IMG/VR virus record: IMGVR_UViG_3300036778_000062
Coordinates: 1 to 64,000 of that record
Origin: a virus
Lineage: Duplodnaviria > Caudoviricetes
DNA length: 64,000 bases
Direction: 5' to 3' (one strand)
Shown: piece after piece, positions 1,397 to 52,451 of the stretch
Position numbering within the stretch: the stretch's first letter is position 1
Layout of the letters: each line of letters begins with the position of its first letter
Notes under the pieces: model-generated
Databases searched by the model: none
Seen by the model: the letters and a program-made list of their open reading frames with translations, nothing else
What the model was told of the DNA's origin: nothing
Translations under genes and position numbers: made by a program

Positions 1397-1652
1397 TGCG
1401 TGCTGTGCTACTGGACTCGCCTAAGCTGGCTCGACGATCCAACCAATTGTCAATAGCCTTAAGATCGTAATGCCCAGTTACGTGGCAAGCAGGCGGTAGG
1501 CCGGCGCGCAGCAAAGCATCCAACTTCGATACAAATTCCGCCTCAGTGAGGTGCAGCCGCCGCGCAGCCTTCTGTGCCGGCACTAGGCGCGGCTCGACCG
1601 GGAATCGGATTTGGTTTGGTGTTGGAACATTATCATTCGCTGGCGTAGCCAC
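1344..1652 (-). CDS. Excisionase-like HTH protein
   Basis: Small ORF overlapping integrase start; YDLKAIDNWLD motif; N-terminal ANDN. Confidence 0.7.
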   Translation of the reverse strand: MATPANDNVPTPNQIRFPVEPRLVPAQKAARRLHLTEAEFVSKLDALLRAGLPPACHVTGHYDLKAIDNWLDRRASLGESSSTARNAADVFAERRARLSKIG

Positions 1653-1675
1653 ATCTGCCTCCTATCTATAAACGC

Positions 1676-1912
1676 ATGCCCAGTCACATCCACATCGTCG
1701 GCACCAAGGACTATTACGTCGAGGTCTGGAACGACGCTGATGAGCACTATATCCTCATTGCTAGCTTCGATAATTTCGACCAAGCGCGAGGCGAGTTCAA
1801 GCGCCTGACCGATGATGAGCCAGACATGCGCGTGATGATGCGGCGACGGGCACATGTCTACGACACTTACATTCCGAAGCGTTTGCGCAAGGCTAGTGAT
1901 CGGCGTGAGTGA
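1676..1912 (+). CDS. Hypothetical phage protein
   Basis: 78-aa ORF with natural composition. Confidence 0.5.
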   Translation: MPSHIHIVGTKDYYVEVWNDADEHYILIASFDNFDQARGEFKRLTDDEPDMRVMMRRRAHVYDTYIPKRLRKASDRRE

Positions 1913-2126
1913 GTTAAAGCGGCGACACTCGAACACTAATTACTTCCCAGTCGACGACCTCGCCACCGCTATCATCGTCAATCACACCCTCGGCAAACTC
2001 GCTGAATTTGTTCTTGGCTTCCGCTTCATTGGTCGCCTCCACTTCCCAAGTCTCCACATGGACGACGCGCATAGTAGCTAGAAATATTGGCATTTCAGTT
2101 ACCTCAATTCACTGTATGGTTATGAT

Positions 2127-2354
2127 GTGCAGATGCCCGATGACATCGAAATCTACACCGAGCGCTACGAACGCGAACACGGCCGCAAGCCGGCTGGTCG
2201 TCGTTTTTGGCGCTTCATTCTGGTTTCTCCAAGCGTCACATCTAAAGATCACTATCTCGATATCGGCGAACAGATGACCTACGACAAGGCGCTGGATCGG
2301 GCCAAGGAAGTTGCCAGGATGCGCAGGGCGGTGCGGATTATTGTGGAGCCTTAA
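2127..2354 (+). CDS. Hypothetical phage protein
   Basis: 75-aa ORF. Confidence 0.45.
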   Translation: MQMPDDIEIYTERYEREHGRKPAGRRFWRFILVSPSVTSKDHYLDIGEQMTYDKALDRAKEVARMRRAVRIIVEP

Positions 2355-3680
2355 TGTGATGGTAAGGAAACTCAGTCGACGTCGCGATCCAATTCGTCCG
2401 GGCTACCGTTGAGGTAGCGGCCGAGTGCCTCGTAAAGATCGCGTGGCCAATTTCCTTTCAACGTCAGCTTCATGCTTTCAGCGTGCGCGGGTCCGACGTT
2501 GATCCAGAAGTGATCCGGTGTCGATCCGAACGTCAGGGTCGTCGGCGATTCCGCCCACGCCTCAATTCGATTTTCAAACGGCATTCATCCCTCCTGCTTT
2601 TGCTGCTGATTAACGTTAGTCAGTTCGCGCGATATTAGCCCAACCAAGTCCTCTTCCAGCTCCTCCATCACGTCGGGGTCAATGCCTCGGAAGCAACTAC
2701 GATCACTGAGATTGTCGAAGATTTTTCGCCATAGGTCTCGCGCTGCTTTCTTGCGATCATGCGGGTGCCGATCTTCGTAATTGCCTCTATCCATCGTTAT
2801 TTCCCTGCTGTGGCTCTTTTTCGATGCAGTTTGGCGGCAACCAATCTGGATAGTTCCAGTCTTGCCGCCAAACGATGCCGCATGATCGGCACGTCCAATA
2901 ACCATCTTCCTGTTGCGGTCTTTCGCAAGTCACTCGCTTCGTCATGGTCTTCCCTTAATGCGCCAGAACGGAGGGGACACAGCGGCCACGGCTTTGATGG
3001 CGTATCCGTCCACAAGAACACGCCGCCAACATCGGCCACATAGTGAGCGGTCACCGGGTTGAACCAAACCCGACGGACCTTCCTGATTCCAATGCGCTCG
3101 CCGGAAACGCTGAACACGGTTCCGCAGCGCAGGTCTCTTGCAATCTCTTCGGTGAGTTTCATTTGCTACCTATGAGCGAATGAGGCGATGGCGTTGGCGG
3201 CGCAGCGCACGGTAATAGTCCACAAATTCCCCTCGCGCCCATTCGAGGGTCCACCAACCGTGATGGCTCAGCAGACTGTTGCCGGTCCCATCCAGACGCG
3301 TGTAACCTTCGCGCCTGCGCTTGTGAAATTCGATTCCGATTAGCTTCCAGCGCATGTTCACGGTCCCTGTCTATTAGCTAACAGAGCGGCCGGCCGCAAC
3401 GGCGGCAGTGCCAATCGCCCTCACACCAGATGTGAAGCCTGATCATTATCTTGGTGAACCAAATCGGCATGTCTACCTCACTCTGATTTCGGCCCATAGA
3501 TACGCTCCATTAGAGCGTAGGCGTCGGCCTTGTATTCGTTTGGCGTCAGGAATCGTTTTCCAACGCCCCAGTCCGATCCAAGCGCCCAAGACACACTCGG
3601 GAATTGCTGCCCCTTCGAAAACTCCTGTTCAAACCAGTACCAAACTACATCTGCGGGACGGTGATCAGGGCGATGCAGGG

Positions 3681-3896
3681 TCATCGAGGATACTCCACGC
3701 CGAACGCCTTGACGTGAGCTGCTTGGGCCAGCTTCCCGACACGGGCGAGCTGAACGCGCTCCTGCGCGTCGGTCTCGTATCGGTACTGCTTGCGGACGCC
3801 ATCGATATAACCCTTGAGATCCGCCGGACTTTCCGCCGCGAACTTGCGAACCCAGAACCGACCGCTTTCGTAAGTGCTTGCTCCGATCCACCGCAT
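3681..3896 (-). CDS. Moron hypothetical protein
   Basis: GGAGG SD; downstream of near-consensus promoter at 3922-3950. Confidence 0.55.
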   Translation of the reverse strand: MRWIGASTYESGRFWVRKFAAESPADLKGYIDGVRKQYRYETDAQERVQLARVGKLAQAAHVKAFGVEYPR

Positions 3897-3921
3897 AGCC
3901 GCCTCCGTTGCTGTCCTTGCT

Positions 3922-3950: not shown

Positions 3951-3965
3951 TAACCGATACCGCTT

Positions 3966-6605: not shown

Positions 6606-6913
6606 GCCACCTCCTCGTTAGTGGAGTCGGCGCCGCGAGCGCGAGCAATGGCTAGGCGATGCGTTTCGAACACCCCGTGTGCACCACCAACTGATCCGTC
6701 GCGATCGTACCACTCGTAAATAGCTTCCAACGCCGCCAACAGATCAGGAGCCGATGCGATGAGGCGGGCGTTGGCTCTCATGCGAGAGTCGGGCTTACAG
6801 TCCTCCCGGTCTCCGTAAGTGGACGCGACTGCCCTTCCGTCCTGAGTCCTGACAAAGCCAGTACCAAAGTTCGGCTGCCAAGGTCCCGGCGTGTGCTGTT
6901 GCTTCGCCATCAC
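6602..6913 (-). CDS. Hypothetical phage protein
   Basis: HTPGPW...ANARLIASAPDLLAAL phage motif. Confidence 0.7.
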   Translation of the reverse strand: MMAKQQHTPGPWQPNFGTGFVRTQDGRAVASTYGDREDCKPDSRMRANARLIASAPDLLAALEAIYEWYDRDGSVGGAHGVFETHRLAIARARGADSTNEEVA

Positions 6914-7329
6914 GCCGCCTCCACAAAAGGCTGCACCGCATCAATCGGGTAGGACGCCTCAGCAGTCACCCCAGCGCGGCGCATCTCGTAATGCGTGCGC
7001 AACTCCAACGCTGCGTGCGCGGCCTCTTCATCACTGACCCAGCCGGCGACGGTGCCATCAAGCGCAATGCGGCGCGCGCCACGCTTGAGCATGCGGAGGT
7101 ACTTAGGTCCAAAACAATACGCCCGCAGAAAGTGCTTCACATCGCGCGCGGTGAGGCCGGTGTTGGCGCCGATCAGGTCGTACTTGATGCCAACCGCGAG
7201 CGGCTGCTTCTCGCCGCCTGAGTAAGAGATGGCCGGGAACAAGTCGGCCAGGTGAGCGCGGTGCTCGCGATACAGTGGCCAGTTTATCTGGCGCTGTGTG
7301 CGGCGCCGTAGGTGAAAGATGGTGCTCAT
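6910..7329 (-). CDS. ProQ/FinO-domain RNA chaperone
   Basis: FP...PLAVGI.YDL...Y....YL......RIALDG motif. Confidence 0.8.
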   Translation of the reverse strand: MSTIFHLRRRTQRQINWPLYREHRAHLADLFPAISYSGGEKQPLAVGIKYDLIGANTGLTARDVKHFLRAYCFGPKYLRMLKRGARRIALDGTVAGWVSDEEAAHAALELRTHYEMRRAGVTAEASYPIDAVQPFVEAA

Positions 7330-7703
7330 GCTGCACACTCCAGCATATCGCCATCAGTCGTCACCTCGTAAGTCGTCTCCGATTCCCAGGTCGGCTTGCA
7401 ATCACGCAGCACGTTTCCGCTGTCGTCGTGCGCGGCCACCAGAATTTGATGTTCGATGATGATGGCACCGAATGCTGAGTCGTCTGGGTGGCGCTCAAAC
7501 GTCGCCATGGCCCACGCCTTGGCTGCGTCTAGCGACCCGTGGATTGTCAGGATGGCGGCTTCCTCGGGCTCGCAATAGGCGCGCATGCCATCGCTGTCCT
7601 CTTCGCCGCCCCATCCGAACTCGCGCGCCAAGTCGCACCATCGCTTGTAACTTATGTGCTCAGCGGTCCAGCGCTCATCGCCTATCTTGTGTTTCGTTGC
7701 CAT
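7326..7703 (-). CDS. Hypothetical phage protein
   Basis: ORF coupled to the ProQ gene; ends in -AA. Confidence 0.55.
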   Translation of the reverse strand: MATKHKIGDERWTAEHISYKRWCDLAREFGWGGEEDSDGMRAYCEPEEAAILTIHGSLDAAKAWAMATFERHPDDSAFGAIIIEHQILVAAHDDSGNVLRDCKPTWESETTYEVTTDGDMLECAA

Positions 7704-8495
7704 CTTCTCTCTCCCGATTCCGTATTGGAATGGGGAGACTGTATACCGATTCGATACAAAAGCAACACCAAAACCATACAAAAAATAAGAAAAAAATAGG
7801 CCCCATTTGCGGAGCCTCAAGTGCATTCCATAAATTCCGGTCCCCGATGCCCCGCCGGTGGCGCCCCTAAAGACGAATTAGCCCAAGCTCAACAATATCA
7901 GTATGAGCTGGCCGCTCGTTCCACGCCGCTCGCGCGTGTGCCAAGCGCGCCGATCCGTCAGGATCGCGAAGTGCGGCCCACCGACCAACGTCAGTAACTC
8001 GCCCAGATTCAAGGTCCATGTAAAGACCGCCGCCGCGAACAATCGGGTTGCACCCCTCAGCCCGTAGTATTGCGTAAAACAAAGCTGCGTCGAATGCACC
8101 GAGCGCTTCCACACTCCTGCAGGCAACACCGCCCCTCCCAGTTTCTAAACTAAACATGAGTTACCCCAACCTAGCCACTGGTCGGCGTGGCAGCCGGGGA
8201 TTGGAAACCAGCTCACGTTACTGGCCGACCGCTTTTACCCCTCGCGGAGTTGGACATGGCAAGCCGTCCCCGGCCAAACTTGGCCAAGTGACGTGCTCGC
8301 CAGAGCACGACGCCAGCTATCTGCTGGTGTTCGGCGTGCCGCCTTGCGGGTCAAGCCTAACGTAAGTCCGGGTTTCCAAGCCCGGAAAATTAATGCGGCA
8401 AAATTGTTTTCTTTGCAAGCCACAACTTGAACACAATAGACTAACTGCGCAAAGCGCGAAAACATAACTGCATTCAACTGTAAGTAGATCGTGCA

Positions 8496-10001: not shown

Positions 10002-10562
10002 ATGAACATGCACGTTGCGCCACAGAACATCGAGCCGGCCAGTCGCCGCGCCCAACGCATGCTTGACGCCAACGACGGCGACAAGGCCCGCACCATCAAG
10101 GAATTGATCAAGCTTGCTGAGACGCAGAAGACGTTGCGCGATACGCTTATCCGGCTTGGCGCGACGGCATTAGTTGGCAATCTTATTTGTCAGGAGCGCG
10201 CGAGGATCGTGCGCGGTGCCGACAACGCAAGCCAAGTTCGGTTCACTACATCAGGAACGATTGTCACACCGCCGGTAATGTCGCCAAGGCAGGCTGAGAT
10301 GCGCCGCTCGGTTGCCCGCAAGAACGTTGTGCGCGCCTGGTTGAATTTCCAGTTGCCTACCAAGGGCAACAAGCAACTAGGAAAGGCTAACGCCAAGGAA
10401 GTTGGCGAGGCTGCCGAGCAGTACCGGCGCAATTCTGGCGACATGCAGCACAAAGCGGCTTGGCTCGATGCCATTCGCGCTAAGTTGCCGCGCGGCAAGA
10501 CTGTCGCCGAGGTCTTGGACGATGGCGCTTTGGACGCGCTTTATGAATCGGTTGCCGCGTAA
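10002..10562 (+). CDS. Hypothetical protein flanked by array units
   Basis: 186-aa helical ORF between units 0 and 1; ends in -VAA. Confidence 0.7.
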   Translation: MNMHVAPQNIEPASRRAQRMLDANDGDKARTIKELIKLAETQKTLRDTLIRLGATALVGNLICQERARIVRGADNASQVRFTTSGTIVTPPVMSPRQAEMRRSVARKNVVRAWLNFQLPTKGNKQLGKANAKEVGEAAEQYRRNSGDMQHKAAWLDAIRAKLPRGKTVAEVLDDGALDALYESVAA

Positions 10563-21008: not shown

Positions 21009-21950
21009 ATGGCACCCCTCCCGCGCGTCGTATCACCCACCGTCGCGGCCATCTATCGCTCCTACGAACAAGCCAACGAGCATTACGACTCGCTGGGCAT
21101 CAGCGTCGGCGAGATAGCCACCGAATGCGATAGGGCACTTTGGTACACCTTTCGCTGGACCAGCAAGCCGGAGGAAATCGATGGCCGCAAGCTTTCGATA
21201 TTCCGAACGGGTGACCGTTGGGAAGAGGTGATGGTGGAAGAGTTGCGGGCTGCTGGCGTTGAGGTTTGGGGTCAGCAAGATCGCATACGCCTTTTGTCGG
21301 GACACGTCCGCGGTAAGTGCGACGGCCGGGCATTGGGAATCCTTGAGGCACCGAAGACTGAACACCTGTGCGAGTTCAAGTCCAGCAATGACAAGGGCTT
21401 CAAGGAGCTGCGAAAGCACAAGTGCAAGAAGGCCAAGCCGCTTCATTACGGACAGTGTCAGATTGGGATGCACGCCTTCGGGCTAACGAGGTGCTGGTAT
21501 GAAGTCACAAACAAGAATGACGACTCCAAATACGTCGAGCGCATCGAGTATGACGCAGAGTGGTGCATCAGGCAACTTGCGCGCGCCGAGCGTATCATTA
21601 AAGCGACTGCGCCGCCGTCGCGCCTGTCTGAGGATCCAGGGTTTTTTGGATGCATGTTCTGCAAGCACCACGACGTCTGCCATAGCGGAGCATGGGCGCG
21701 AGTTACCTGCCGATCTTGCCTTCACTCCACACCAGAAATGAGCGGCGATGCACACTGGTCTTGTTCGCGCTGGGCCAAGCCATTGGGCGTCGAAGAGCAG
21801 AAGGCGGCCTGTCCGGCGCACCTTTATATACCGAGCGTGGTGCCAGGAGAACAGTTGGACGCGTCGGAAGAGGACGAGACTGTGACTTATCGCCTAGCGA
21901 ACGGTACCACGTGGATTGACGGCCAAGACAAGATGGAGAATGCGGCGTGA
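21009..21950 (+). CDS. Cas4-like PD-(D/E)xK exonuclease
   Basis: CDR.LWY, GKCDG, EFKS, Q..Q, C-terminal Cys cluster. Confidence 0.8.
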   Translation: MAPLPRVVSPTVAAIYRSYEQANEHYDSLGISVGEIATECDRALWYTFRWTSKPEEIDGRKLSIFRTGDRWEEVMVEELRAAGVEVWGQQDRIRLLSGHVRGKCDGRALGILEAPKTEHLCEFKSSNDKGFKELRKHKCKKAKPLHYGQCQIGMHAFGLTRCWYEVTNKNDDSKYVERIEYDAEWCIRQLARAERIIKATAPPSRLSEDPGFFGCMFCKHHDVCHSGAWARVTCRSCLHSTPEMSGDAHWSCSRWAKPLGVEEQKAACPAHLYIPSVVPGEQLDASEEDETVTYRLANGTTWIDGQDKMENAA

Positions 21951-22414
21951 GGGGATACAGCGCGATCGGTTTGGTGCGTCCAAAGGACGTCAAGAACGTC
22001 GGTGCTGTGCTTCGCGCAGCCCACTGTTACGGCGCTGCAATGGTCGCGATTCAAGGTGACAGGACTCCGATTAAGTCAGCGCAGGATACTCCGAGTGCAT
22101 GGCGACACATGCCAGTGTTGCGTGGTGACGATCTGTCTGCGCTCGTGCCGTATGGCTCGGTGCCTGTGGCTGTCGACTTGGTTGACGACGCGATTCCACT
22201 GCCGGAGTTTCAGCACCCAGAGCGCGCCTTCTACGTGTTTGGCCCTGAAGACGGCACACTAGGGCAATCCATTCTTAAGTGGTGCAGTCATCGCGTGATG
22301 GTGCCAACGCGCACCTGCATGAACTTGGCGGCGACGGTGAACGTCGTTTTGTACGACCGGCTGTGCAAACGTGGCGCGGCCAACGATAACTCTAATCTTG
22401 GGGCTGCAGCGTGA
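21947..22414 (+). CDS. SpoU/TrmH-family RNA methyltransferase
   Basis: NVGAVLRAA, FGPEDG, CMNLAATVNVVLYDR. Confidence 0.85.
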   Translation: MRGYSAIGLVRPKDVKNVGAVLRAAHCYGAAMVAIQGDRTPIKSAQDTPSAWRHMPVLRGDDLSALVPYGSVPVAVDLVDDAIPLPEFQHPERAFYVFGPEDGTLGQSILKWCSHRVMVPTRTCMNLAATVNVVLYDRLCKRGAANDNSNLGAAA

Positions 22415-22667
22415 GCTACCACCTATTTGAAAAGAAATGGCAGGCTGCCCGCAAACCTCACATCTGTATCTGGTGCTATCAGCGTATCGTCATAACGGAG
22501 GTCTATTTGCGCGAAAAATCGATCTATGACGGCCATCATCAAAATCACGCATGGCACTGGGATTGTTGGTTTGATGCGCAAGAGAATTACTTCAAGGGCG
22601 GCGAATCTGAGTTCACTACCGGCATGGACCGGCCTGCAATGCTGCCGTTCCGCAGCATGGAGGCAGC

Positions 22668-23153
22668 ATGACCCCCACCCCAGCCAATGACAACCGCCCC
22701 GCATCCTTCGATGCGCTACTCGCCAAGTACGACCCATTTATCCGCTCCAAGTGCTGCGGTGATGAAGACCTCTACCAGGACATCAGACTCTTGGCGATTG
22801 AACGCTGGTATCGCTATCGCCAGGACGGTAACTTCGTGTCTTGGGTATCGTATCTTGTGCGTGAGGTCATCAGTCAGCGCGCGCGCAAGATAGCAAGGGC
22901 AGAGAAGTGGCTACCGTATACGCCGCCAAGCCATACTGAACCATCGCAGGAGCACGCTGCTGGCGCCACACAAGCGCTTGGTGCGCTTAGTCAAGCCGAA
23001 CGCGACGCCGTATCGCTTATAGCCACTGGCCACACGGGTGACGAGGCCGGCCGTGTGATGGGCGTGTCGCGCCAGCGTGTGTGGCAAGTAGTCGAGCGCG
23101 GGCGTGAACGATTGGCGGCGAATGATAATGTGCTGGCAAGGAAAGCCGCCTGA
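22668..23153 (+). CDS. ECF sigma-like / sigma-4 HTH protein
   Basis: EDLYQD, FVSW, MGVSRQRVWQ. Confidence 0.7.
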   Translation: MTPTPANDNRPASFDALLAKYDPFIRSKCCGDEDLYQDIRLLAIERWYRYRQDGNFVSWVSYLVREVISQRARKIARAEKWLPYTPPSHTEPSQEHAAGATQALGALSQAERDAVSLIATGHTGDEAGRVMGVSRQRVWQVVERGRERLAANDNVLARKAA

Positions 23154-24886
23154 TGCCGCTGCGGTACTACCAGCATGAAGCAAAAACGGCAGTATTCGAT
23201 TATTGGTCAGAAACCCCCGGCAATCCACTAGTTGTAGCCGCTACCGGCACCGGCAAGTCGATTATGCAGGCCTCGTTGACGTGCGACCTTATCGATGGTT
23301 GGTCAGACCTACGCGTGATGAATACGACCCACGTGGTTGAACTGGTCGAAGGCAATTACAAAGAACTTATTGGCCTTCGGCCGTTTGTCCCCGCAGGAAT
23401 CTATGCATCATCACTTGGACAAAGTGATGCCAGAGCGCAGGTGCTGTTCTCGCAATTGCAAACAGTGCACAATAAGGCCAAGAGAATTGGTCATGTTGAC
23501 GTACTGCAAATTGATGAAGCTCACCTTGTGCCGTTCAAGCAGGCCACTCAATATCGCAGGCTGATTGATGACCTGATGGCCATCAATCCCGACATGAAAA
23601 TTAACGGGTTCACGGCGACAGACTATCGTCTGGACGGGGGTAGACTAACCGAAGGAGATGGCAAGTTATTTGACAAAGTTGTCTATGATTACGGGATTCG
23701 TCGCGGCATTGATGACGGCTACCTGACTCCAATCACCAGCAAACCCCTCGCCACTAAATACGACATGACCGGCGTGGGTCGGTCGATGGGGGACTACAAA
23801 GCCGGAGACTATCGCGAGGCCGTTGACACCGACGAACTTAATAAGCGCGTCGTTGAAGAGGTTCTCGATGTCGAGGGCCACCGCAAGAAGGCGCTTATAT
23901 TTTGCCGCGGTATCGAGCACGCCGCGCGCATTCGAGATGCGTTCAAGGTGGCGGGCAGGGCAGTTGAGCTCGTGCATGGTGGCACTCCAACTGGAGAGCG
24001 TCGCGGTCTGATCGAACGCCTGAAGTCTGGCGAGCTTTGGGGTCTCGTCAACGATAATGTTCTATCGACCGGGACAAACATCGTTGGCGTTGATCTGATC
24101 GTTGATTTGTATCGAACCATGTCCGCAGGACGTTACGTCCAACGTGTCGGCAGAATGACGCGGGTCATCTACCCGCCCGGGTTTGATCCTGAGGCCGTTG
24201 CCGCTGAGGCCCGTCGCGCTGCAATAGCATCGTGGCTGAAGCCAAACGGTCGTTATATGGACTTCGCTGGCAACATCAATGAACATGGTCCGGTTGATAT
24301 GGTCCAACCGAAAAAGCCTGGCAGCGGATCCGGCGAAGCGCCAATTAAAATCTGCCCGACGTGCGATGAAATAAACCACGCAAGTGTGAGGGTCTGTTCG
24401 TGCTGCGGTTTTGAGTTTGAATTTGAAGAAAAGCCGAAGTTCACAGCGCGGGCGTCGGACGCTCCAATCATTTCTACGGACGAGGACTGGCGTAACGTTA
24501 CGGGGCGCACCTACAGAGAGCACCCGCCAAAGCCGGGCAAACCCGCCTCAGTTAAGTGCACATATCGTCTCGGGCTGACAACGCAAAACGAGTGGCACTG
24601 CCCTGGCCACGGAGGTTACCCAAAGGCGAAGGCCGATCGATATTGGAAAATGCACGGCGGCGCCTTACCGTTCCCCAAGTCTGCAGACGAGTGGCTAGAT
24701 CGTGCTGGAGAATTGAGGGTGACGGCTGAGATCAGGCTAAAGCCTAACGGGAAATATTTTGACATTATTGACTGGAGGGCCGGCACAGAGGTGGCGAGCG
24801 ATAGCGTGTCACCCGTTGCCGACAACGACAACTGGAAGCCGCTTATGGCGGCGGGCGATAATTGGGACGAAGACATCCCGTTTTGA
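23153..24886 (+). CDS. SF2 DEAH helicase with zinc finger
   Basis: LRYYQ, ATGTGKS, DEAH, QRVGR, CPTC..CSCC. Confidence 0.9.
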   Translation: MPLRYYQHEAKTAVFDYWSETPGNPLVVAATGTGKSIMQASLTCDLIDGWSDLRVMNTTHVVELVEGNYKELIGLRPFVPAGIYASSLGQSDARAQVLFSQLQTVHNKAKRIGHVDVLQIDEAHLVPFKQATQYRRLIDDLMAINPDMKINGFTATDYRLDGGRLTEGDGKLFDKVVYDYGIRRGIDDGYLTPITSKPLATKYDMTGVGRSMGDYKAGDYREAVDTDELNKRVVEEVLDVEGHRKKALIFCRGIEHAARIRDAFKVAGRAVELVHGGTPTGERRGLIERLKSGELWGLVNDNVLSTGTNIVGVDLIVDLYRTMSAGRYVQRVGRMTRVIYPPGFDPEAVAAEARRAAIASWLKPNGRYMDFAGNINEHGPVDMVQPKKPGSGSGEAPIKICPTCDEINHASVRVCSCCGFEFEFEEKPKFTARASDAPIISTDEDWRNVTGRTYREHPPKPGKPASVKCTYRLGLTTQNEWHCPGHGGYPKAKADRYWKMHGGALPFPKSADEWLDRAGELRVTAEIRLKPNGKYFDIIDWRAGTEVASDSVSPVADNDNWKPLMAAGDNWDEDIPF

Positions 24887-24934: not shown

Positions 24935-25285
24935 TTGAACAAACCACTGGTTATTATTGAAAGTCCGTTTGCTGGCTCGAACGAGGAAGAACGCGAATCC
25001 AACATCGCCTACGCGCGCAAGTGCGTGGCTGATAGCGTTCATCGCGGCGAGGCGCCAATAGCGTCGCATTTATTGTTCACCCAAACAGGCATCTTAAATG
25101 ACGACATTCCAGGCGAGCGCACGCTAGGCATCGAGGCTGGCCTTGCGTGGTATCGCGTGGCGGATAAGTGCGTTGTTTATATGGATCGGGGCTATTCAAA
25201 GGGTATGGCGCAAGGCCAGTTGCGCGCTGCGCAACATGCCGTGCCGGTCGAGATCAGATACATCGAGCGCGAGGTGGCGGCGTGA
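24935..25285 (+). CDS. DUF4406/NDT-like protein
   Basis: IIESPFAG...PIASHLL...SKGM. Confidence 0.55.
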   Translation: MNKPLVIIESPFAGSNEEERESNIAYARKCVADSVHRGEAPIASHLLFTQTGILNDDIPGERTLGIEAGLAWYRVADKCVVYMDRGYSKGMAQGQLRAAQHAVPVEIRYIEREVAA

Positions 25286-26073
25286 TTGAACCTGTCATTA
25301 TCGGCGACTGCATGCTGTATCATGGGAATTGCCTAGAGGTGATGGCTGGGTTTGAGCAAGTAGACTGCATCGTCACCGATGCGCCTTACAAGGTTTCGAG
25401 CGGAGGTTTTGCGTCCAACCTCCAACTTGAGGGCGGCTTCGGCGGTTGGATGAAAGAGTATGGGAATGGCGGCGATATCGTTCAGTGTGATATCGATTGG
25501 TCCGATTGGATGGCGCCAGCCTTCGCCACACTGAAGGACGATCGACAAGCGTATTTTATGACGAACGGCAAGAATTTGAGTCGCGCTCAAGCTGCTGCTG
25601 AGGCGGCTGGGTTTGACCTGCACACAATACTCGTTTGGGATAAGCGTGCCGCGCTTCCAAACAAGTATTACCAAAACGTCACCGAGTTCACGCTGTTCAT
25701 GAAGAAGGGAAAGGCGTTCACCATTAGAACGCCATCCTCAAAGAACCTTGTCAGCTTGTTCCAGAGAGACGAATCTGAACACCCGACTGAAAAGCCCGTT
25801 GAATTGATGTCAATTTACATTGGCAACTCGACGTCTCCAGGCCAAACCATCCTTGACCCGTTCATGGGCAGCGGCACGACCGGAGTCGCGTGCGCGAAGA
25901 TGGGGCGTCGCTTTATAGGCATCGAGCTTGACCGCAAGTATTTCGACATTGCGTGCGAACGCATTACGAAAGCCTACGCGCAAGGCGACATGTTCACCGA
26001 GCGCCGCAAAGAGCCGCGGACGGCAGACATGTTCGCCAACGACAACGCACCTGCGAAAGCTGGTGCAGCGTGA
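25282..26073 (+). CDS. Site-specific DNA amino-methyltransferase (N6/N4, beta class)
   Basis: DAPY, HPTEKP, LDPFMGSGTT. Confidence 0.9.
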   Translation: MIEPVIIGDCMLYHGNCLEVMAGFEQVDCIVTDAPYKVSSGGFASNLQLEGGFGGWMKEYGNGGDIVQCDIDWSDWMAPAFATLKDDRQAYFMTNGKNLSRAQAAAEAAGFDLHTILVWDKRAALPNKYYQNVTEFTLFMKKGKAFTIRTPSSKNLVSLFQRDESEHPTEKPVELMSIYIGNSTSPGQTILDPFMGSGTTGVACAKMGRRFIGIELDRKYFDIACERITKAYAQGDMFTERRKEPRTADMFANDNAPAKAGAA

Positions 26074-26428
26074 TCACCGACCTCATCGGCACCTGCTTCA
26101 TCTGCAAACGCCGGCACGACTGCATCGGGTATAGCCCACACGACCGCGCGCCAATCAAGTGGGTGTGCTGGGAGTGTCTTGACGGCACGCATAACGGAAT
26201 CCGCTCCAAACTACCGAGGCTCTATCACATGCCACGCAAGCAACTGGATCAATACGAGAAACAAGCCCTCGAGGACGGCGGGAACGCGGGTGGTGAGTAT
26301 TTGGATGAGATCGGGAAGACAGACTTGGCCAGCCTGGATGAGGATGAGTGGGGCACGTTCCTTGGGAGGGTACTGGTTGGGTATGCCGACAGCATGCGGG
26401 AGATTGTGAGCAGGGAAGTACCGTATTG

Positions 26429-27277
26429 ATGTTGGCAGCAAATGATAATGCGCCTGCAACTGGCGTAGCGGCGCGCGCCTACTACAACGAGATTGACCCA
26501 TATGCAGCACAATGGTTGCGCAACCTGATTGCCGCCGGCCTTATCGCGGCTGGAGATGTCGATGAACGAAGTATTGAAGATGTTATTTCAAGCGACCTCG
26601 CAGGATACACCCAGTGTCATTTCTTTGCCGGCATCGGAGGGTGGAGCTTTGCAGTTAGGCTTGCAGGGTGGCCAGATGACAGACCTGTTTGGACAGGAAG
26701 TTGCCCCTGTCAACCATTCTCCGTTGGCGCGGTCCAAGGTGGCGGCGGAAAGGGTCAAGAGGACGAGCGGCACCTTCTGCCGACTTTTACCAAACTCATT
26801 GCAGAGTGTGCTCCTCCAGTCGTCTTTGGAGAGCAGGTTGCAAACGCGATTAAGTGGGGTTGGCTTGACGAAGCGTTCACAGCGATTGAGGCGGTTGGCT
26901 ACGCCTGCGGGGCGGCTGTTATGCCAGCATTTGCTGTCGGCGCGAGACATGAAAGAAAGCGGATTTATTGGGTGGCCAACTCCGTGCGCCAGGGATGGAA
27001 GGGATATCAGCAGGACAAACGCACACCTGGCGGCTCGCGAACGTCACTCGCCGTCGATGGTGACGCGCTTGTTAGAGGCTGGGGCGCACTGGACGGTGAT
27101 TTCAGCGGTTTACGGTCTGACGATGGGGTACCCGTTAGCGTGGAACGATGCGCGACCAAGGGCTACGGCAACGCGATTGTCCCGCAACTCGCAGCAGAGT
27201 TCGTAGGCGCATTTATGGATTGCATGCCGATAGCCGCCAATGACAACAGCGAGGAGTCCGCCTGTGACGCCGCTTGA
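26429..27277 (+). CDS. C5-cytosine DNA methyltransferase, large subunit
   Basis: FAGIGG, CPCQPFS, EQV, RKR, GYGNAIV. Confidence 0.88.
   Translation: MLAANDNAPATGVAARAYYNEIDPYAAQWLRNLIAAGLIAAGDVDERSIEDVISSDLAGYTQCHFFAGIGGWSFAVRLAGWPDDRPVWTGSCPCQPFSVGAVQGGGGKGQEDERHLLPTFTKLIAECAPPVVFGEQVANAIKWGWLDEAFTAIEAVGYACGAAVMPAFAVGARHERKRIYWVANSVRQGWKGYQQDKRTPGGSRTSLAVDGDALVRGWGALDGDFSGLRSDDGVPVSVERCATKGYGNAIVPQLAAEFVGAFMDCMPIAANDNSEESACDAA
26676..27206 (+). CDS. Overlapping alternative-frame MTase small subunit (putative)
   Basis: Open frame nested in the MTase gene, with WPTP..RD and LTMGYPLAW (motif IX-like). Confidence 0.6.
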   Translation: MTDLFGQEVAPVNHSPLARSKVAAERVKRTSGTFCRLLPNSLQSVLLQSSLESRLQTRLSGVGLTKRSQRLRRLATPAGRLLCQHLLSARDMKESGFIGWPTPCARDGRDISRTNAHLAARERHSPSMVTRLLEAGAHWTVISAVYGLTMGYPLAWNDARPRATATRLSRNSQQSS

Positions 27278-30680: not shown

Positions 30681-30824
30681 TAGGTATCAGATCGGACCTA
30701 TTAAAATACAACCTGAAAGGCCGGTTGAGGCCGGACGCTGTACGCCGTTCAATCAGCCTGTCCGCCCCAAAACATTTTCCATACAAAAACTTTACCGCTT
30801 GCCCCGCCACGACCTATCTTGGTC

Positions 30825-31289
30825 ATGGGCATCAAAACCACAAAACTCAAGAACGGCACTCGGATTGTGCGCAGCACAACTACCGTGCCGGAATGGCGGC
30901 TCCAATCTGAACAATGCCGACGATTGCGAGCGCTGCCCGCCTATGGGCGTTCGTTCCTACTGGTGGGTGGGATGGAGGCAGGCAAGAGAGGACCCCAGAC
31001 GGCCACCGTAGCCAAGGCTACGGGCCTTACAGCGGGGCACCCGGACCTGACGATTTTCCTACCCGGTGGCCGGTGCGCCTTCATCGAGAACAAGACCGAG
31101 GCCGCAGCCAAGAAAAAGAAGCGCAGCAACGGGCTTGATCCGGCCCAGGTCGACCGTCACGAGGCGCTGCGCCGTCTAGGGCATACGGTTGAGGTGATTG
31201 TTGCGGCCAATGAGAGCGAGGCAGCCGATAAGGCTGTTGGCCTGGTTATGGGCTGGCTGGCGGCGAACGATAATGGGGAGGGGAAGTGA
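30825..31289 (+). CDS. VRR-NUC-like nuclease
   Basis: GLTAGHPDL...FIENK...Q. Confidence 0.8.
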   Translation: MGIKTTKLKNGTRIVRSTTTVPEWRLQSEQCRRLRALPAYGRSFLLVGGMEAGKRGPQTATVAKATGLTAGHPDLTIFLPGGRCAFIENKTEAAAKKKKRSNGLDPAQVDRHEALRRLGHTVEVIVAANESEAADKAVGLVMGWLAANDNGEGK

Positions 31290-31810: not shown

Positions 31811-32332
31811 ATGACCCCAGCCAACGACAACGAACCTCGCGTTACGCCTCCGGTGTTCACTGCGCTCAAACGCGCCAAGGACTTCACCACGCTGAACAGC
31901 ATTCGTAGGTGGATGCGATACGACGCGGAGCCCACAACAGCGGCTAACGATAATGGGCTCCCAGAAGGCTATCAGATTGACAGCTATATGGAATCAATGA
32001 GTGCGGAGGCGCTGATTGCAGCCTATCACGCTGGCACCTACCACATAGGCATGCACGAGGAACGGTTCCGCAGGCCGCGCGGGCCATCCACAGCACCGCC
32101 AATTGATGAATTCGAGGACGCTGAAGGGGATACGGCCAGGTACGTAGACCGGTATGGTGTGCGCGGCGCGCTCGGCGAAAACGCCACTGTATTGGATATG
32201 GCTTGCGATGGGCGCACTTACCGAGAGATTGGCGAATATGTTTGTGCCGTAGGCTCTGTAGATACCCGAGAGAGGGCTGGTAAGAGAGCGGTTAGCGCGG
32301 CGGCTAAATTATTTTCAGAAATTGCGGCCTGA
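31811..32332 (+). CDS. Putative late-transcription regulator (HTH)
   Basis: GRTYREIG; last gene before the late region. Confidence 0.5.
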   Translation: MTPANDNEPRVTPPVFTALKRAKDFTTLNSIRRWMRYDAEPTTAANDNGLPEGYQIDSYMESMSAEALIAAYHAGTYHIGMHEERFRRPRGPSTAPPIDEFEDAEGDTARYVDRYGVRGALGENATVLDMACDGRTYREIGEYVCAVGSVDTRERAGKRAVSAAAKLFSEIAA

Positions 32333-33202: not shown

Positions 33203-33667
33203 GTGGCCAAGTCTATCGGTTTGGATGAAAATATATTGAGTAGCAGGTCAAAAAAGGACGCTCTCCTTGGGATGCCGACTGGCACTGCGTGGGGAAGATT
33301 ACGTAAGGAAGTTCTATTCAGTCTTGCAAAGAAGCTATGTCTGACGCGTTGTCATCGTTGCGATCAGGAAATTGAAACAGTCTCACAGTTATCAATCGAT
33401 CATAAAATAGACTGGCAATCGTCTGATACTCCGCTCGAAACGTTCATGGATATAGACAACATTGCCTTTTCCCACCTCAGTTGTAATGTTTCTGCGGCAT
33501 CAAGGCCCACAAAGAAATATCATTCAACTCGTGAACGCAATCGCGAGAATTTCCGTATCTACTACGAGAGAAATGGAGCTGAGTGGAATGAGCGACGCAA
33601 CGCAAGGCGAAGGAAGCCAACATTAGTCGCCAATGATAATCAATCACAAGCGGCGCTTGTTGGATAA
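33203..33667 (+). CDS. HNH endonuclease-like protein (AT-rich insertion)
   Basis: CHRC, SIDH, N....H..CN. Confidence 0.65.
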   Translation: MAKSIGLDENILSSRSKKDALLGMPTGTAWGRLRKEVLFSLAKKLCLTRCHRCDQEIETVSQLSIDHKIDWQSSDTPLETFMDIDNIAFSHLSCNVSAASRPTKKYHSTRERNRENFRIYYERNGAEWNERRNARRRKPTLVANDNQSQAALVG

Positions 33668-36317: not shown

Positions 36318-37592
36318 ATGTCCTTCCTCGACAGATGGTTTAACAAAACCATTGACCTTAACGCGGCGAGCCAACCGTTTTGGAGCGGTTTCTTTGGCGC
36401 GAGGTCAACTTCTGGCGAGGAAGTCACATTTGATAGGGCCATGCAGCTCGATGCGGTGTGGGCGTGTGTCAATCTGATCAGCAATGCAATCGGAACGCTT
36501 CCGTGCATTGTTTATGGTGAAGACGGCGTTACGCCTGCAACAGATGACCCGCTTTACGACCTCTTGCACGACTTGCCAAACGTAGACGACACGGCACCAG
36601 AATTTTGGAATATGGTGGTGCTTTGTCTCCTGCTTGACGGCAACTTCTTTGCCGAGATCAAGCGCGTTGGTGGCAGGATTGTTGCTTTAAACCCGATGCA
36701 TCCGCTTGCGGTTCAGGTTAGGCGAGATCCTGAACGCGGATATGCCCGTTATTACGAGTACAATCAGCGTTTTTATATGCAGGCGCCGACAGGCGTGCGC
36801 CGCATTGAAGAAGTGGATATGTTTCACGTCCGCGGCCAGATGATTCCTGAGTGCGACCGCGGTCTTTCTCCGATTTATTTCGCGCATAATTCGATCGGGA
36901 ACGCCATTGCAGGCGAAAAAGCTGCCGGCAAGATGTTCAAGAGCGGCTTGATTGCGACCACTTTCCTGTTTGCTGACCAGGTTCTCAAGCCCGAGCAGCG
37001 AAAACAGATTGAGGATAGCCTCACAAAGTTTGCTGGGGCCGAAAAGGCCGGCGGCGTAACTGTGATGGAGGCGGGCATGAAGGCCCAGCCCATCACGATT
37101 AATCCGATTGACGCGCAAATGCTGGAGTCTCGGCAGTATAGCGTTGAGCAGATTTGTCGAATTTTTGGTGTCCCGCCCGTGATGATTGGCCACGCAGCCA
37201 ACGGCACGACGACTTGGGGTAGCGGGATTGAGCAACTGATCCTGCAATTCTACAAATCTTGCTTATTGCCTCTGGTTGGCCGCATCGAAGCGACGATTTG
37301 TCGAGATCTGTTGACGCCCCAGCAGCGTAAAAATCGCAAAGTGCGGTTTAATTTTACTGCGTATCTCGAAGGCGACAGCACCGCGCGCGCTAATTTCCTC
37401 ACCAAAATGGTTGCCGGTAGCATTTACACCGTCAACGAGGCGCGTGAGTACGAAAATAAGCCAGATGTCGAAGGTGGCGACAAGATTATTGCTAACGGCA
37501 CGATGACGCCGCTGGACAAGTTGGGCGAGCAGCCTGCAGCACCCGCACCACCCGTCACAAACGACAACAAACCACCCGCGAAGGCCGCATAG
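36318..37592 (+). CDS. HK97-family portal protein
   Basis: AVWACVNLI, GLSPI, ICRIFGVPP, NEARE.EN. Confidence 0.93.
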   Translation: MSFLDRWFNKTIDLNAASQPFWSGFFGARSTSGEEVTFDRAMQLDAVWACVNLISNAIGTLPCIVYGEDGVTPATDDPLYDLLHDLPNVDDTAPEFWNMVVLCLLLDGNFFAEIKRVGGRIVALNPMHPLAVQVRRDPERGYARYYEYNQRFYMQAPTGVRRIEEVDMFHVRGQMIPECDRGLSPIYFAHNSIGNAIAGEKAAGKMFKSGLIATTFLFADQVLKPEQRKQIEDSLTKFAGAEKAGGVTVMEAGMKAQPITINPIDAQMLESRQYSVEQICRIFGVPPVMIGHAANGTTTWGSGIEQLILQFYKSCLLPLVGRIEATICRDLLTPQQRKNRKVRFNFTAYLEGDSTARANFLTKMVAGSIYTVNEAREYENKPDVEGGDKIIANGTMTPLDKLGEQPAAPAPPVTNDNKPPAKAA

Positions 37593-39981: not shown

Positions 39982-40031
39982 ACAATAAATGGTGTGGGGT
40001 TCGGCCCCACACCGTTCCCTTGGAGTTTTTC

Positions 40032-40424
40032 ATGATAGTCCGCGCGCTACGAACGACGTTTGACAACAACTACGGCTCGTTGCATCAAGGCGCCGTCGCC
40101 GAAGTTGACGATTACACGGCGCGCGAGTTGATCGCACAGGGTTATGCGATCAAGGAATTGCCTCTTGCCCAGCAGGAGGCTGCGAATGACAACAGCCCTT
40201 TCGCCCAGACTGGTTCCCAGACTGGCGCGGATCCACTGCGGTCATTGTTGCTGGAGGACCTAGTGCAGGCTGCGCCGGTCTTGCCGCGGTTAAGCACAGA
40301 CCCGGAGTTCGCTTCCTCGCCATCAATAACGGATACAAGCTATGCCCATGGGCAGACGCTCTCTACGCCTGCGACTTCGACTGGTGGAAAGCGGAAGAGG
40401 GGGCGCCCTCGTTTGCAGCGCTAA
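40032..40424 (+). CDS. Small post-capsid protein with -1 slippery site
   Basis: Follows the capsid gene; ARELIAQGYA; C CCT TTC at 40196-40202. Confidence 0.65.
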   Translation: MIVRALRTTFDNNYGSLHQGAVAEVDDYTARELIAQGYAIKELPLAQQEAANDNSPFAQTGSQTGADPLRSLLLEDLVQAAPVLPRLSTDPEFASSPSITDTSYAHGQTLSTPATSTGGKRKRGRPRLQR

Positions 40425-40840
40425 GAATTACGCAGGACGGATATAAGCCAAGGCCAGAGTGGGAATTGCGCGCCGTTACGTTGGTCAGAAACTGCGACAG
40501 GCTACTGTTTAACAGGTTTGGCGAGATTGGCTGGGGCGGCAACGGTGGCTTTCACGCGTTAAATCTGGCCATTCAGTTTGGCGCGCGACGTATTGTATTG
40601 GTTGGATATGATATGCGCGTCGACCACGGGACGCACTGGCACGGTGACCACCCGAAAGGGATGAATAATCCGGCGGCTGTGAACGTGAAGCGCTGGCGTC
40701 AAGTTCTAGACGCTCAGGCTGGGTTATTGAAAGAGATGGGCGTCGAAGTGTTAAACGCCTCCGCTGTTAGCGCGCTTGAAGCTTATCCCAAAATGACACT
40801 GGAAGCGGCGATATACGGTGGAATGAATGTCGCTGCTTGA
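40190..40840 (+). CDS. Glycosyltransferase-like (DUF115/Maf/CST-like) domain lacking its own start
   Basis: AVIVAGGPS, LAINN, WADALYACD..WW, GFHALNLA..GARRIVLVGYD. Confidence 0.65.
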   Translation, partial: QQPFRPDWFPDWRGSTAVIVAGGPSAGCAGLAAVKHRPGVRFLAINNGYKLCPWADALYACDFDWWKAEEGAPSFAALRITQDGYKPRPEWELRAVTLVRNCDRLLFNRFGEIGWGGNGGFHALNLAIQFGARRIVLVGYDMRVDHGTHWHGDHPKGMNNPAAVNVKRWRQVLDAQAGLLKEMGVEVLNASAVSALEAYPKMTLEAAIYGGMNVAA

Positions 40841-48210: not shown

Positions 48211-48214
48211 ATAA

Positions 48215-50332: not shown

Positions 50333-50988
50333 TGACCATCACATACCCGCTCGACATCCTGTCAACTTTTCCGGGGTACACTACCTCCTTCGAGCCCCTC
50401 TACCGCCAAGAGCAATCTCGCACGCAGGGCGGCGTGACTTACGTCAAGGACTACGATGATCCACTGTGGTGCCTGTCGGCTCAGTCGCGCTCGTTGTCCA
50501 TCAATGAACTGGACTTCTGGCGTGCGAGGCTGGCAGCCCTTGAGAACGGCCTGCAGACGTTCGTTGGGTATTCGATGTCGCGGACCTGGCCGATCCTTTA
50601 CCCGCGCGGCAGTTGGCCGACTGGCGCTTCGTTTGACGGTGTATCGGCTCACCTGTCGGCAATCAATGACGCTCGCACCGCCATTCAGGTTGCGGGCTTG
50701 CCGGCGGGGTATAAATTCTCGATAGGCGACTATCTGGCGATCGGTACTGATCTCCATCAGGTGATGGAGCCAGCCACGGCGGCAGCGGGCACGACAACTG
50801 CCTTTGAGGTCCGTCCTCGCATCTGGCCTGACGTGTCGGCGTCCGACAGCCCTGCGCCAGTTGTGTCAGTCAAGAAGCCATCCTGCCTGATGACGATTGA
50901 TCCTGGCTCGATTACGTCGCCGGCCGATCCTGCCACAGGCCGCGGTGTGATTTCGTTCACGGCGACAGAGTCGCGGCCGACGTCATAG
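50332..50988 (+). CDS. Distal tail protein
   Basis: Position after the tape measure gene. Confidence 0.65.
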   Translation: MTITYPLDILSTFPGYTTSFEPLYRQEQSRTQGGVTYVKDYDDPLWCLSAQSRSLSINELDFWRARLAALENGLQTFVGYSMSRTWPILYPRGSWPTGASFDGVSAHLSAINDARTAIQVAGLPAGYKFSIGDYLAIGTDLHQVMEPATAAAGTTTAFEVRPRIWPDVSASDSPAPVVSVKKPSCLMTIDPGSITSPADPATGRGVISFTATESRPTS

Positions 50989-51646
50989 TTCAATAGATAG
51001 GCCGAAATATCGGCGCACCGCTCGACTCTCAATGATGGCTCGCAGCAGAACTGCGGCTGGTCCCTTGACTCCATCCCGCTCCCAGCGGCGCCACTGGGCG
51101 CCATCGTTAATACCGACGAGGGCGGCGGCTTCTGTTGCGGAAAGCCTTAGAGCAGATCGCGCGGCCCTAACTTCGTCCGCACGGATGGGGGATGTGCGGT
51201 CAATCATGCTGGGTAAAGTCGTGGATATCAGTGGTGGCGCGTTCGAAGGCATCGCTGGCGAGTTTTCCCACCGCAGCTAGCTTCGGCTCGCACCTGGACA
51301 TGTCGTATATCCGCTGCAGGGCCGTCAAGGCTGTTTTTAGCCGCGCATCTGTTCCGCGCTTAATCGCGACTATCTGCGCGTGGTTGTTTCTCCAAAGAAT
51401 GGCTTCTTTTCGCCAGTCGCTGGCTCGCTCTTCCATTTACGCATCTCCAGTCTTGATCACGTAATCAATATCGGTCTCGCGATCCTCGGCGCTCAATACG
51501 CGACTGATGAATGCAACTTCGTTTCCTTCAGCATCATCGAAACATTCGTAACGATAGTCTCCGTCTCGCTCAATGCGAGGTTCCTGCCTCACATGCATGG
51601 GGCAGTTTGCAACAATGAAAGCTTCAAATTCTGCCTTGGTGGTCAT
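50983..51646 (-). other. Antisense moron: two hypothetical ORFs plus HTH regulator
   Basis: 51437-51646, 51200-51436 and HTH (EAAALVGI..WRRWE). Confidence 0.65.
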
Positions 51647-51708
51647 CTTTCCGACTCCACCCCCTCATTGCCGGGAGGCGCCTGCACCAGCTCGGTGCTG
51701 GTGTACGT

Positions 51709-51737
51709 AACATAGGTGATTATCACCTATGTGTCAA
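51709..51737 (-). promoter_or_regulatory. Moron promoter with palindromic operator
   Basis: TTGACA-17-TATGTT; ACATAGGTGAT-T-ATCACCTATGT. Confidence 0.7.
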
Positions 51738-51770
51738 CATCTAATTCAACATCAATAATTTTTACGGTTT

Positions 51771-52451
51771 ATGACCCGCTCACTTTCCGACGCTAATTTC
51801 GCCGCGATTCAACAGCGGCGCATTGTGCCGCGCGATTTCATTTGGCTGATTGCGCGTGACCGCTCTAGCGGCGCCCCTGTAGCCGAAGGTGTCTGGTCGG
51901 GGCAGGGGAATTTCACTGCTGCGGTGATCGACCCGCATACAGGCGGCAGTCAGGACCGCGCGTTTTTCGGTTCTGGTGCGTTGGTTTCGGTGGGCAATAT
52001 TCCGCTGGTGCAAGGCATCACGGTGCAGACGCTTACCATCACGATGTCTGGCGTCAATGCGGCGTTCAATGATTACGTTCGCACCAATGACCTGAAGCAA
52101 GCCGAAATCCAAATCTTCCGTGGCTTTCTCGATCCTGGCACCAGACTCCTTGTTGCGCCTGCCGTCCCCCGATTTGTCGGTTACATCGACGATGCGCCAA
52201 TCACGACGCCAAAGGAAAACACCAGCGGCGCGATCACGATTACGGCGACGTCAAATACGCAGGAATTGACGCGCGCAAATTCCGATACGCGCTCGGATGC
52301 CAGCCAGCGTCTGCGCGCCGCCAATGATAACTTCTATCAAGACACCGCAGTTGTCGGCGGCTGGAAGTTTTTCTGGGGTCTCTATAACGGCAGCTTGGCA
52401 ACGACTGGAAGCAATTTCGACCCATCAACACATCCGTCCCACGCCAGATGA
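51771..52451 (+). CDS. Tail tip/hub protein
   Basis: Position in the tail module. Confidence 0.65.
   Translation: MTRSLSDANFAAIQQRRIVPRDFIWLIARDRSSGAPVAEGVWSGQGNFTAAVIDPHTGGSQDRAFFGSGALVSVGNIPLVQGITVQTLTITMSGVNAAFNDYVRTNDLKQAEIQIFRGFLDPGTRLLVAPAVPRFVGYIDDAPITTPKENTSGAITITATSNTQELTRANSDTRSDASQRLRAANDNFYQDTAVVGGWKFFWGLYNGSLATTGSNFDPSTHPSHAR

Follow-up and report, generated by a model that had tools for sequence, protein, structure and literature searches.

Why would a temperate phage write the opening residues of a bacterial degradation tag into one of its proteins after another? The question is raised by the first 64 kb (64,000 nucleotides, referred to here as the window) of the 140,645-bp IMG/VR virus record IMGVR_UViG_3300036778_000062, in which the tetrapeptide ANDN is encoded 15 times. 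The carrier, referred to here as prophage 1, is a 68-kb temperate phage of a Rhizobium-type bacterium. In bacteria, transfer-messenger RNA (tmRNA) adds an alanine plus the ssrA tag to a protein, the adaptor SspB binds the tag head, and ClpX binds the carboxylate of its terminal Ala-Ala. A first-pass annotation proposed that the ANDN motifs mimic this tag, and that the phage thereby hard-codes SspB/ClpXP degrons to time its proteins, or titrates SspB. Here we describe the distribution and context of the motifs, which are probably genetically encoded mimics of both functional ends of the host ssrA tag, handled by the alphaproteobacterial adaptor SspB-alpha and by ClpXP.

Six-frame translation and a ranking of all tetrapeptides in open reading frames (ORFs) of at least 80 codons place the 15 ANDN sites, and the variants DNDN in the helicase and TNDN in the portal protein, exactly where the first-pass annotation had put them (Table 1). 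Fourteen of the 15 are on the plus strand, all lie in open frames longer than 100 codons, and Ala precedes nine. The 11 carrier proteins are indeed unrelated, belonging to differing Pfam and PHROG families. Two additional sites lie past the window in the same prophage, one at 64395, which forms a full tag-like end on a DNA-repair exonuclease, and an internal one at 66420. With 17 sites against 0.28 expected, ANDN ranks first among all tetrapeptides of prophage 1 for over-representation (P = 8e-25), the next unrelated tetrapeptide reaching only near P 1e-5. The earlier rough estimate was of less than one site by chance, and the composition gives 0.17-0.28 sites. All four Ala codons, both Asn codons and both Asp codons are used at the window sites, and this synonymous variation therefore points to selection acting on the peptide.

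The same habit is found across relatives of prophage 1. A helicase search of IMG/VR yields 20 related contigs (53-80% identity), all of which carry ANDN (2-14 sites per 10-22 kb). Pooling of 23 sources gives 142 unique sites, preceded by Ala in 54% and by Pro in 32%; 46 of these lie within 12 residues of the C-terminus, and in 31 of the 46 a spacer of 4-10 residues leads to a terminal Ala-Ala. The helicase is also 38-58% identical to those of the Sinorhizobium phages NV1.1.1 and AP-16-3, several RHph phages and the classic phage 16-3. Phage 16-3 contains 18 ANDN-coding sites (a 416-codon ORF near its left end, the putative portal, ends in ANDN and then Ala-Ala) and NV1.1.1 contains 20, bringing the set to 178 unique sites. 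Within this set 68% of the sites are no more than 40 residues from the C-terminal end (16% expected), and the flanks are richer in disorder-favouring residues (0.62 versus 0.52). The motifs are situated beyond or at the edge of Pfam/PHROG domain matches.

Orthologues of six early proteins are present in 13-24 relatives. The NDN core is kept in all 21 distinct tails of the single-stranded DNA-binding protein (SSB)-like orthologues (25-73% identity) despite drifting flanks, and the helicase orthologues have one or two xNDN copies in their tails, mainly ANDN or DNDN. The tails of the N6/N4 methyltransferase orthologues end in Ala-Ala in 10 of 10 cases, and those of the sigma-factor-like orthologues in 9 of 13. 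Among orthologues of the Cas4-type exonuclease and of the RusA-like and sigma-like proteins the head is gained and lost, in the manner of short linear motifs under selection. The SpoU-family methylase, for which no orthologue was found in any relative examined, carries a complete mimic (its domain stops at residue 136 of 155, before the tag-like end), which suggests that newly acquired genes gain the tail quickly.

An origin of the motifs by chance, from base composition, or from a DNA-level signal such as a binding site or repeat that translates as ANDN can be dismissed almost outright. The commonest DNA version of the motif does account for 40 of the 178 sites, as might be expected of a DNA-level signal, but 27 of the 32 possible synonymous versions occur and no site falls outside the coding frame of a long ORF; such an origin is excluded because the motif is frame-locked and varies synonymously. 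Chance is countered by the probability given above for the composition, by the second prophage on the same record (same host, similar composition), which has no ANDN in a credible ORF, and by the host genomes, where 0-6 hits per strand per genome are obtained with the reversed pattern and 1-23 with ANDN itself. Readings of the motif as a glycosylation sequon, a calcium-binding loop or a site of protease cleavage were considered and rejected as misfits with the tails of unrelated early cytoplasmic proteins and with the Ala-Ala end.

A second signal, overlooked in the first-pass annotation, is the Ala-Ala C-terminus itself, which is found on about 18 proteins of prophage 1 where about one is expected. 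In a crude gene set, 19 of 82 genes of prophage 1 end in this way against 1.0 expected, and 2 of 84 in the rest of the record against 1.2 expected. The reality of genes was judged by conservation in relatives (a filter on GC3, the G+C content at third codon positions, performed poorly in this genome), and 13 Ala-Ala-ending ORFs of prophage 1 are supported by a family match or a conserved relative. On the coding (plus) strand of the lineage's loci, 172 of 1108 ORFs have the Ala-Ala end (14 expected, P = 1e-125), compared with 23 of 1300 on the opposite strand (16 expected). The two signals go together, the Ala-Ala end being present on 51% of ORFs with ANDN and on 11% of those without. Both terminal positions use all four Ala codons. 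A by-product of overlapping start and stop codons, or of the next gene's Shine-Dalgarno sequence, was rejected as the main cause because of this codon usage and because many of the ends have no overlapping start; Glu is frequent at position -3 of these ends, which is compatible with GGAG there.

The head and the Ala-Ala end are combined in five tag-like C-termini of the window, all correctly quoted in the first-pass annotation, in which the spacer has a native-like length of 5-7 residues; the tail at 64395 has native-like spacing as well. The sites at 31263 and 33629 and the internal and N-terminal sites lack such spacing. The tails are encoded in frame in phage genes with spacers that differ from gene to gene, and are thus not products of trans-translation by tmRNA. 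In the head and tail genes the Ala-Ala end occurs only in the portal protein and one small ORF, and apart from these the structural genes are largely without either signal.

Comparison with host tags, a check that had been proposed at the outset, shows that all 27 sampled tags (those of Bosea, Pseudohoeflea and 25 further Hyphomicrobiales) start with ANDN and end with Ala-Ala. The host tags are 12-13 residues long, with ANDN followed by Tyr, Asn or Phe (in the 25 further tags) and then by Ala, and with a spacer of 6-7 residues between head and Ala-Ala; the full phage mimics are 11-14 residues long, versus 12-13 plus one in the hosts. The adaptor gene sspB adjoins ssrA in both Bosea and Pseudohoeflea, SspB is present in 40 of 41 Hyphomicrobiales genomes sampled, and 25 of 29 further sspB loci carry an adjacent tmRNA gene. 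At least 27 of 31 Hyphomicrobiales loci examined (L025, L026 and L042-L070) have sspB no more than a few hundred bases from the two-piece tmRNA gene.

Among solved structures, the SspB-alpha of Caulobacter (2QAS, 2QAZ) and Agrobacterium 2NYS match the SspB of Bosea. A complex of Bosea SspB residues 1-125 (27-row alignment) with the last 36 residues of the C5 methylase of the Bosea prophage was predicted with a tentative score, somewhat short of the middle of the scale, and the best of three controls scored next to nothing; the solved 2QAZ means that the model may be recalling it. The mark set for this score is reached by 58 of 80 solved complexes and by 2 of 110 mismatched pairs, and among those that reach it at no more than a little above mid-scale are only 7 of the 80 solved complexes and both mismatches. 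At least 66% of contacts are shared between separate runs, and the predicted local distance difference test (pLDDT) value of the partner is at least 46. The predicted complex lends weak support to SspB binding, possibly as a memory of 2QAZ.

From the sequences we infer SspB binding, ClpXP degradation and a physiological purpose as follows. The head, [Ala/Pro]-Ala-Asn-Asp-Asn, would dock on SspB-alpha, and the ClpX pore would grip the chain at its free Ala-Ala C-terminus. Three classes of carrier can then be proposed. Full mimics (head, 4-10 spacer residues and a C-terminal Ala-Ala) would be SspB-enhanced ClpXP substrates; five such proteins, their heads exactly ANDN or TNDN, are in the window, and another is at 64395. 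Proteins with the head alone at the N-terminus or in a linker, often along with an Ala-Ala end, would be tethered by SspB while ClpX engages another end. Proteins with only the Ala-Ala end would carry an adaptor-independent ClpX degron. Carriers are mainly early proteins, namely a regulator, nucleases, DNA methylases, and replication and recombination proteins. Leaky early expression in the lysogen would be mopped up, and early proteins would be short-lived unless their production exceeds the capacity of the protease; both lysogen clean-up and short early lifetimes would be in keeping with a set of carriers rich in regulators, nucleases, methylases and replication proteins but poor in virion proteins.

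The proposal that the motifs are SspB/ClpXP degrons thus stands in part. It is favoured by the selection on the peptide, the identity of the head with that of the hosts, the usual preceding Ala, the frequent native-like spacing of Ala-Ala, and the presence of sspB and ssrA in the hosts of relatives. The N-terminal and internal motifs could not, on their own, serve as C-terminal degrons. Timing and titration, the two functions originally offered, are not distinguishable from these data. It is unlikely that the mimics, on about a fifth of the proteome and chiefly on early lytic proteins, constitute a threshold and stress sensor for the lysis-lysogeny decision and not mere clean-up; limited SspB-ClpXP capacity would in that case stabilise the early proteins during a flood of tmRNA-tagged products or above an expression threshold.

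Several observations weigh against mimicry of the host tag. After the head the phages favour Pro at position +2 (42% of the 142 unique sites) and have nearly any residue at +1, where the hosts have Tyr, Asn or Phe and then Ala; SspB-alpha would bind only weakly if it needs these positions. In a third of the motifs the preceding residue is Pro, which trans-translation never places there, and the tandem copies 7-8 residues apart, like the N-terminal copies, are unexplained by a simple C-terminal degron. Proteins needed in bulk for replication (SSB-like protein, helicase and primase) carry the signals, which looks costly. The match to the host tag rests on the hosts of relatives and on the uniformity of the tag in the order. 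Finally, the helicase-related phages VpKK5, JG054 and Vid5 of Vibrio, Pseudomonas and Pantoea, with 0, 0 and 1 ANDN sites, show no enrichment of the ANDE/ANDD heads of their own hosts (0-2 sites each), and tag mimicry is therefore not a general habit of the phage family; as a test of co-variation between phage head and host tag, this result is neutral.

There is a small chance that the motifs serve as decoys that saturate tag surveillance by SspB/ClpXP, stabilising other proteins or disturbing the ClpXP-dependent host cell cycle, with the regulation of the carriers themselves beside the point. The many abundant early proteins with a head, some of them in tandem, would suit this function, and proteins that have the head but lack the Ala-Ala end (31263, 33629 and the SSB-like tail) would occupy the adaptor yet be poor substrates. 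Limiting ClpXP-SspB capacity and queueing are documented for E. coli (PMC12013620). However, a single abundant decoy would suffice, and some 20 proteins carry the signals; the Ala-Ala end is commoner than the head and often occurs without it, which suggests that each protein's own fate is at stake; and the most abundant late products, the structural proteins, largely lack the motifs.

It is likewise improbable that ANDN docks onto a phage hub or another host protein, organising the early proteins into, for example, a replication/recombination centre, with the likeness to the tag a coincidence. The carriers are mostly proteins of DNA metabolism, the motifs adjoin other docking motifs (a D-M-F in the methylase tails that resembles a clamp-binding motif, and an acidic I-P-F in the helicase that resembles the SSB tip), the residues after the head depart from the host tag, and generic docking motifs typically show Pro-rich flanks, N-terminal placement and tandem copies. 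Such a partner would not account for the exact identity of the four residues with the invariant head of every host tag sampled, nor for the Ala before more than half of the sites, as in truly tagged proteins, nor for the native-like Ala-Ala ends on most near-terminal copies, which are needless for docking elsewhere. The portal protein, exonuclease and sigma factor are also carriers, and the whole 140-kb record contains neither a tmRNA gene nor a gene for SspB or an SspB-like protein.

Within bacterial genomes, a helicase search of 401 Hyphomicrobiales genomes identified 19 related prophages, none of them close enough to be prophage 1 itself. Related prophages are present in Bosea sp. LjRoot237 and Pseudohoeflea suaedae. 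In the 6.1-Mb Bosea genome, 10 of the 20 ANDN-coding sites are in the 55-kb prophage and one is ssrA itself, and in Pseudohoeflea 7 of 16 are on the prophage contig, one again being ssrA. The same clustering is seen in three more genomes with related prophages; in two helicase-bearing elements (G083 and G011, 44% identity) the sites are not clustered. The enrichment is specific to the phage lineage to which prophage 1 belongs, and both signals are absent from the second prophage, from the remainder of the host genomes and from the gammaproteobacterial relatives. When one 15-base version of the motif was used as a seed against IMG/VR, 80 loci were recovered, of which 24 hold at least one further ANDN, and four of the seed loci (L124, L138, L155 and L159; G+C 0.59-0.63) encode proteins whose C-terminus consists of ANDN, a short spacer and then Ala-Ala or similar; the habit may therefore reach alphaproteobacterial phage groups beyond the 16-3 group.

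The individual parts of the proposed system are familiar. Host proteins with ssrA-like C-terminal ClpX degrons ('C-motif 1') exist, and in E. coli RseA the SspB site is separate from the C-terminal degron. The phage tails would resemble the former as encoded, putative C-terminal degrons of the Ala-Ala type, and the placement of the adaptor motif elsewhere in the chain, as in RseA, is the logic proposed here for the N-terminal and internal copies. Unlike these single host proteins, the phage lineage places both modules on roughly a fifth of its proteins, and the adaptor-binding part reproduces the tag head literally. ClpX or ClpXP handles lambda O, Mu transposase and Mu repressor, and the control of phage replication and regulatory proteins by host ClpX, proposed here, would be similar; those proteins have their own unrelated signals, one protein each, none of which is known to be a copy of the tmRNA tag with an SspB head.

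Compared with the native alphaproteobacterial ssrA tag, known with SspB-alpha and ClpXP from Caulobacter (2QAS, 2QAZ) and Agrobacterium (2NYS), the phage tails have the head, the usual preceding Ala, the Ala-Ala end and a similar length in common, whereas they are gene-encoded, not trans-translated, have a variable and often Pro-rich middle, and have the head also alone at N-termini, in linkers and in tandem. In Caulobacter, where ssrA tagging was engineered for controlled depletion, an ssrA tag encoded at the 3' end of the ctpA gene made proteolysis of CtpA too rapid for viability, and deletion of sspB slowed the loss of tagged CtpA enough for complementation (PMC9393093). That laboratory construct has the full native tag, and the phage tails are natural and evolved with variable spacers.

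Our literature search found no paper describing phage proteins that copy the tmRNA tag; with the ssrA tag, SspB-alpha, C-terminal ClpX degrons and ClpX-controlled phage proteins all known, systematic use throughout a phage lineage appears undescribed. If the tails function as proposed, a virus would here be copying, in nature and on a large scale, a quality-control tag of its host to set the lifetimes of its own proteins, and rhizobial phages, the long-studied 16-3 included, would have a new layer of lysogeny control. It would also provide a set of evolved graded degrons for alphaproteobacteria (varied spacers, with or without head, N- or C-terminal) and a test bed for cargo choice by SspB-alpha. 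The hypothesis is testable with the existing Sinorhizobium meliloti and phage 16-3 system, or with Caulobacter reporters.

Table 1. Bounding features, ANDN-type motifs and Ala-Ala C-termini of prophage 1 in the window. Parent genes are given in brackets, and motif positions are those of each ANDN or variant.
Feature	Position	Strand	Motif position	Remark
tRNA-Asp gene	49-125
attL, 68-bp direct repeat	75..142	+		overlaps 3' part of tRNA-Asp; partner copy 68259-68326
Integrase	164-1396	-		after tRNA-Asp
ANDN, 102-residue ORF (1344-1652) upstream of integrase	1629..1640	-	1629	residues 5-8; six-frame translation
Two ANDN, C-terminal tail of DUF669 SSB-like protein (16751-17311)	17210..17242	+	17210, 17231	7 residues apart; family match
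Full tag-like end, SpoU-family methylase (21947-22414)	22376..22414	+	22379	Ala, ANDN, 5-residue spacer, Ala-Ala, stop
N-terminal ANDN, sigma-factor-like protein (22668-23153)	22683..22694	+	22683	residues 6-9; also in relatives L003 and L007
Full tag-like end, same sigma-factor-like protein	23115..23153	+	23118	Ala, ANDN, 5-residue spacer, Ala-Ala, stop
DNDN, helicase tail (23153-24886)	24821..24832	+	24821
Full tag-like end, N6/N4 DNA methyltransferase (25168-26073)	26035..26073	+	26035	ANDN, 6-residue spacer, Ala-Ala, stop
N-terminal ANDN, C5 DNA methyltransferase (26348-27277)	26438..26449	+	26438	likely start ATG 26429
Full tag-like end, C5 DNA methyltransferase	27233..27277	+	27236	Ala, ANDN, 7-residue spacer, Ala-Ala, stop
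ANDN, RusA-like endonuclease (30819-31289)	31263..31274	+	31263	4 residues from end; no Ala-Ala end
N-terminal and internal ANDN, 173-residue protein (31811-32332)	31820..31954	+	31820, 31943	residues 4-7 and 45-48; protein ends Ala-Ala
ANDN, HNH endonuclease (33203-33667)	33629..33640	+	33629	8 residues from end; no Ala-Ala end
Tag-like end, portal protein (36318-37592)	37557..37592	+	37557	TNDN, 5-residue spacer, Ala-Ala, stop
Internal ANDN, 134-residue ORF (40020-40424)	40182..40193	+	40182	directly after capsid gene
Internal ANDN, tail protein (51771-52451)	52320..52331	+	52320
Ala-Ala end without ANDN, ProQ/FinO-like	6910-7338	-
Ala-Ala end without ANDN, ORF	7326-7826	-
Ala-Ala end without ANDN, ORF	10002-10562
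Ala-Ala end without ANDN, transposase-like	10569-12095
Ala-Ala end without ANDN, ORF	13814-14056
Ala-Ala end without ANDN, Sak4-like	15411-16241
Ala-Ala end without ANDN, Cas4-type exonuclease	21009-21950
Ala-Ala end without ANDN, ORF	22411-22671
Ala-Ala end without ANDN, primase	27240-29459
Ala-Ala end without ANDN, ORF	40466-40840

Not all rows of Table 1 are of equal standing. The 102-residue ORF upstream of the integrase has no family match and no conserved relative, and is doubtful as a gene. The site at 52320 is the least like the others and could be of chance origin. The N-terminal ANDN of the C5 methyltransferase is likewise found in its orthologues of NV1.1.1 and L020. The ANDN at 40182 immediately precedes a C-CCT-TTC heptamer (40182-40202).

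Prophage 1 extends for about 68.2 kb (75 to 68326) between the two copies of the direct repeat, and consists of a leftward block that contains the ProQ/FinO-like gene, a rightward early block at roughly 10-34 kb, and, from about 34 kb, an HK97-type head and siphovirus tail block (terminase, portal, protease, capsid, tape measure and fibre). The early block encodes the Sak4-like annealing protein, DUF669 SSB-like protein, a Mu Gam-like protein, the phage's own sliding clamp and the Cas4-type exonuclease, as well as the SpoU methylase, sigma-factor-like protein, SF2 helicase, N6/N4 and C5 DNA methylases, primase, and RusA-like and HNH nucleases. Its large terminase shares 63% identity with the enzyme of Rhizobium phage RHph_Y3_1. 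Prophage 1 belongs to the 16-3-like lineage, with which it has in common an early module (helicase, SSB-like protein, clamp, Cas4-type exonuclease and methylase) and an HK97-type head module. The remainder of the record (70000-140645) is the second prophage (G+C 0.60 versus 0.57), in whose six-frame ORFs runs of Gly, Pro and Arg are abundant.

Other short motifs occupy the same tails. The N6/N4 methylase tail has one or two motifs of the form Q-x-D-M-F or L-F immediately ahead of the ANDN head (25990-26034); they resemble clamp-binding motifs, and 9 of 10 orthologues retain them. Since the phage has a clamp-like processivity factor of its own (18401-19459, phrog_947), the methylase may ride on a clamp. 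The helicase C-terminus (24866-24886) has an acidic stretch followed by I-P-F (or V-P-F, L-P-F), which resembles the C-terminal tip of bacterial SSB that recruits partner proteins; this acidic x-P-F tip is kept in 20 of 21 distinct orthologous tails (L003-L024, 16-3 and NV1.1.1), and across the lineage 34 ORFs end in PF, which ranks second among C-terminal dipeptides. At the end of the SSB-like tail (17290-17311), a basic [K/R]-P-W is present near the C-terminus, downstream of the NDN core, in all relatives.

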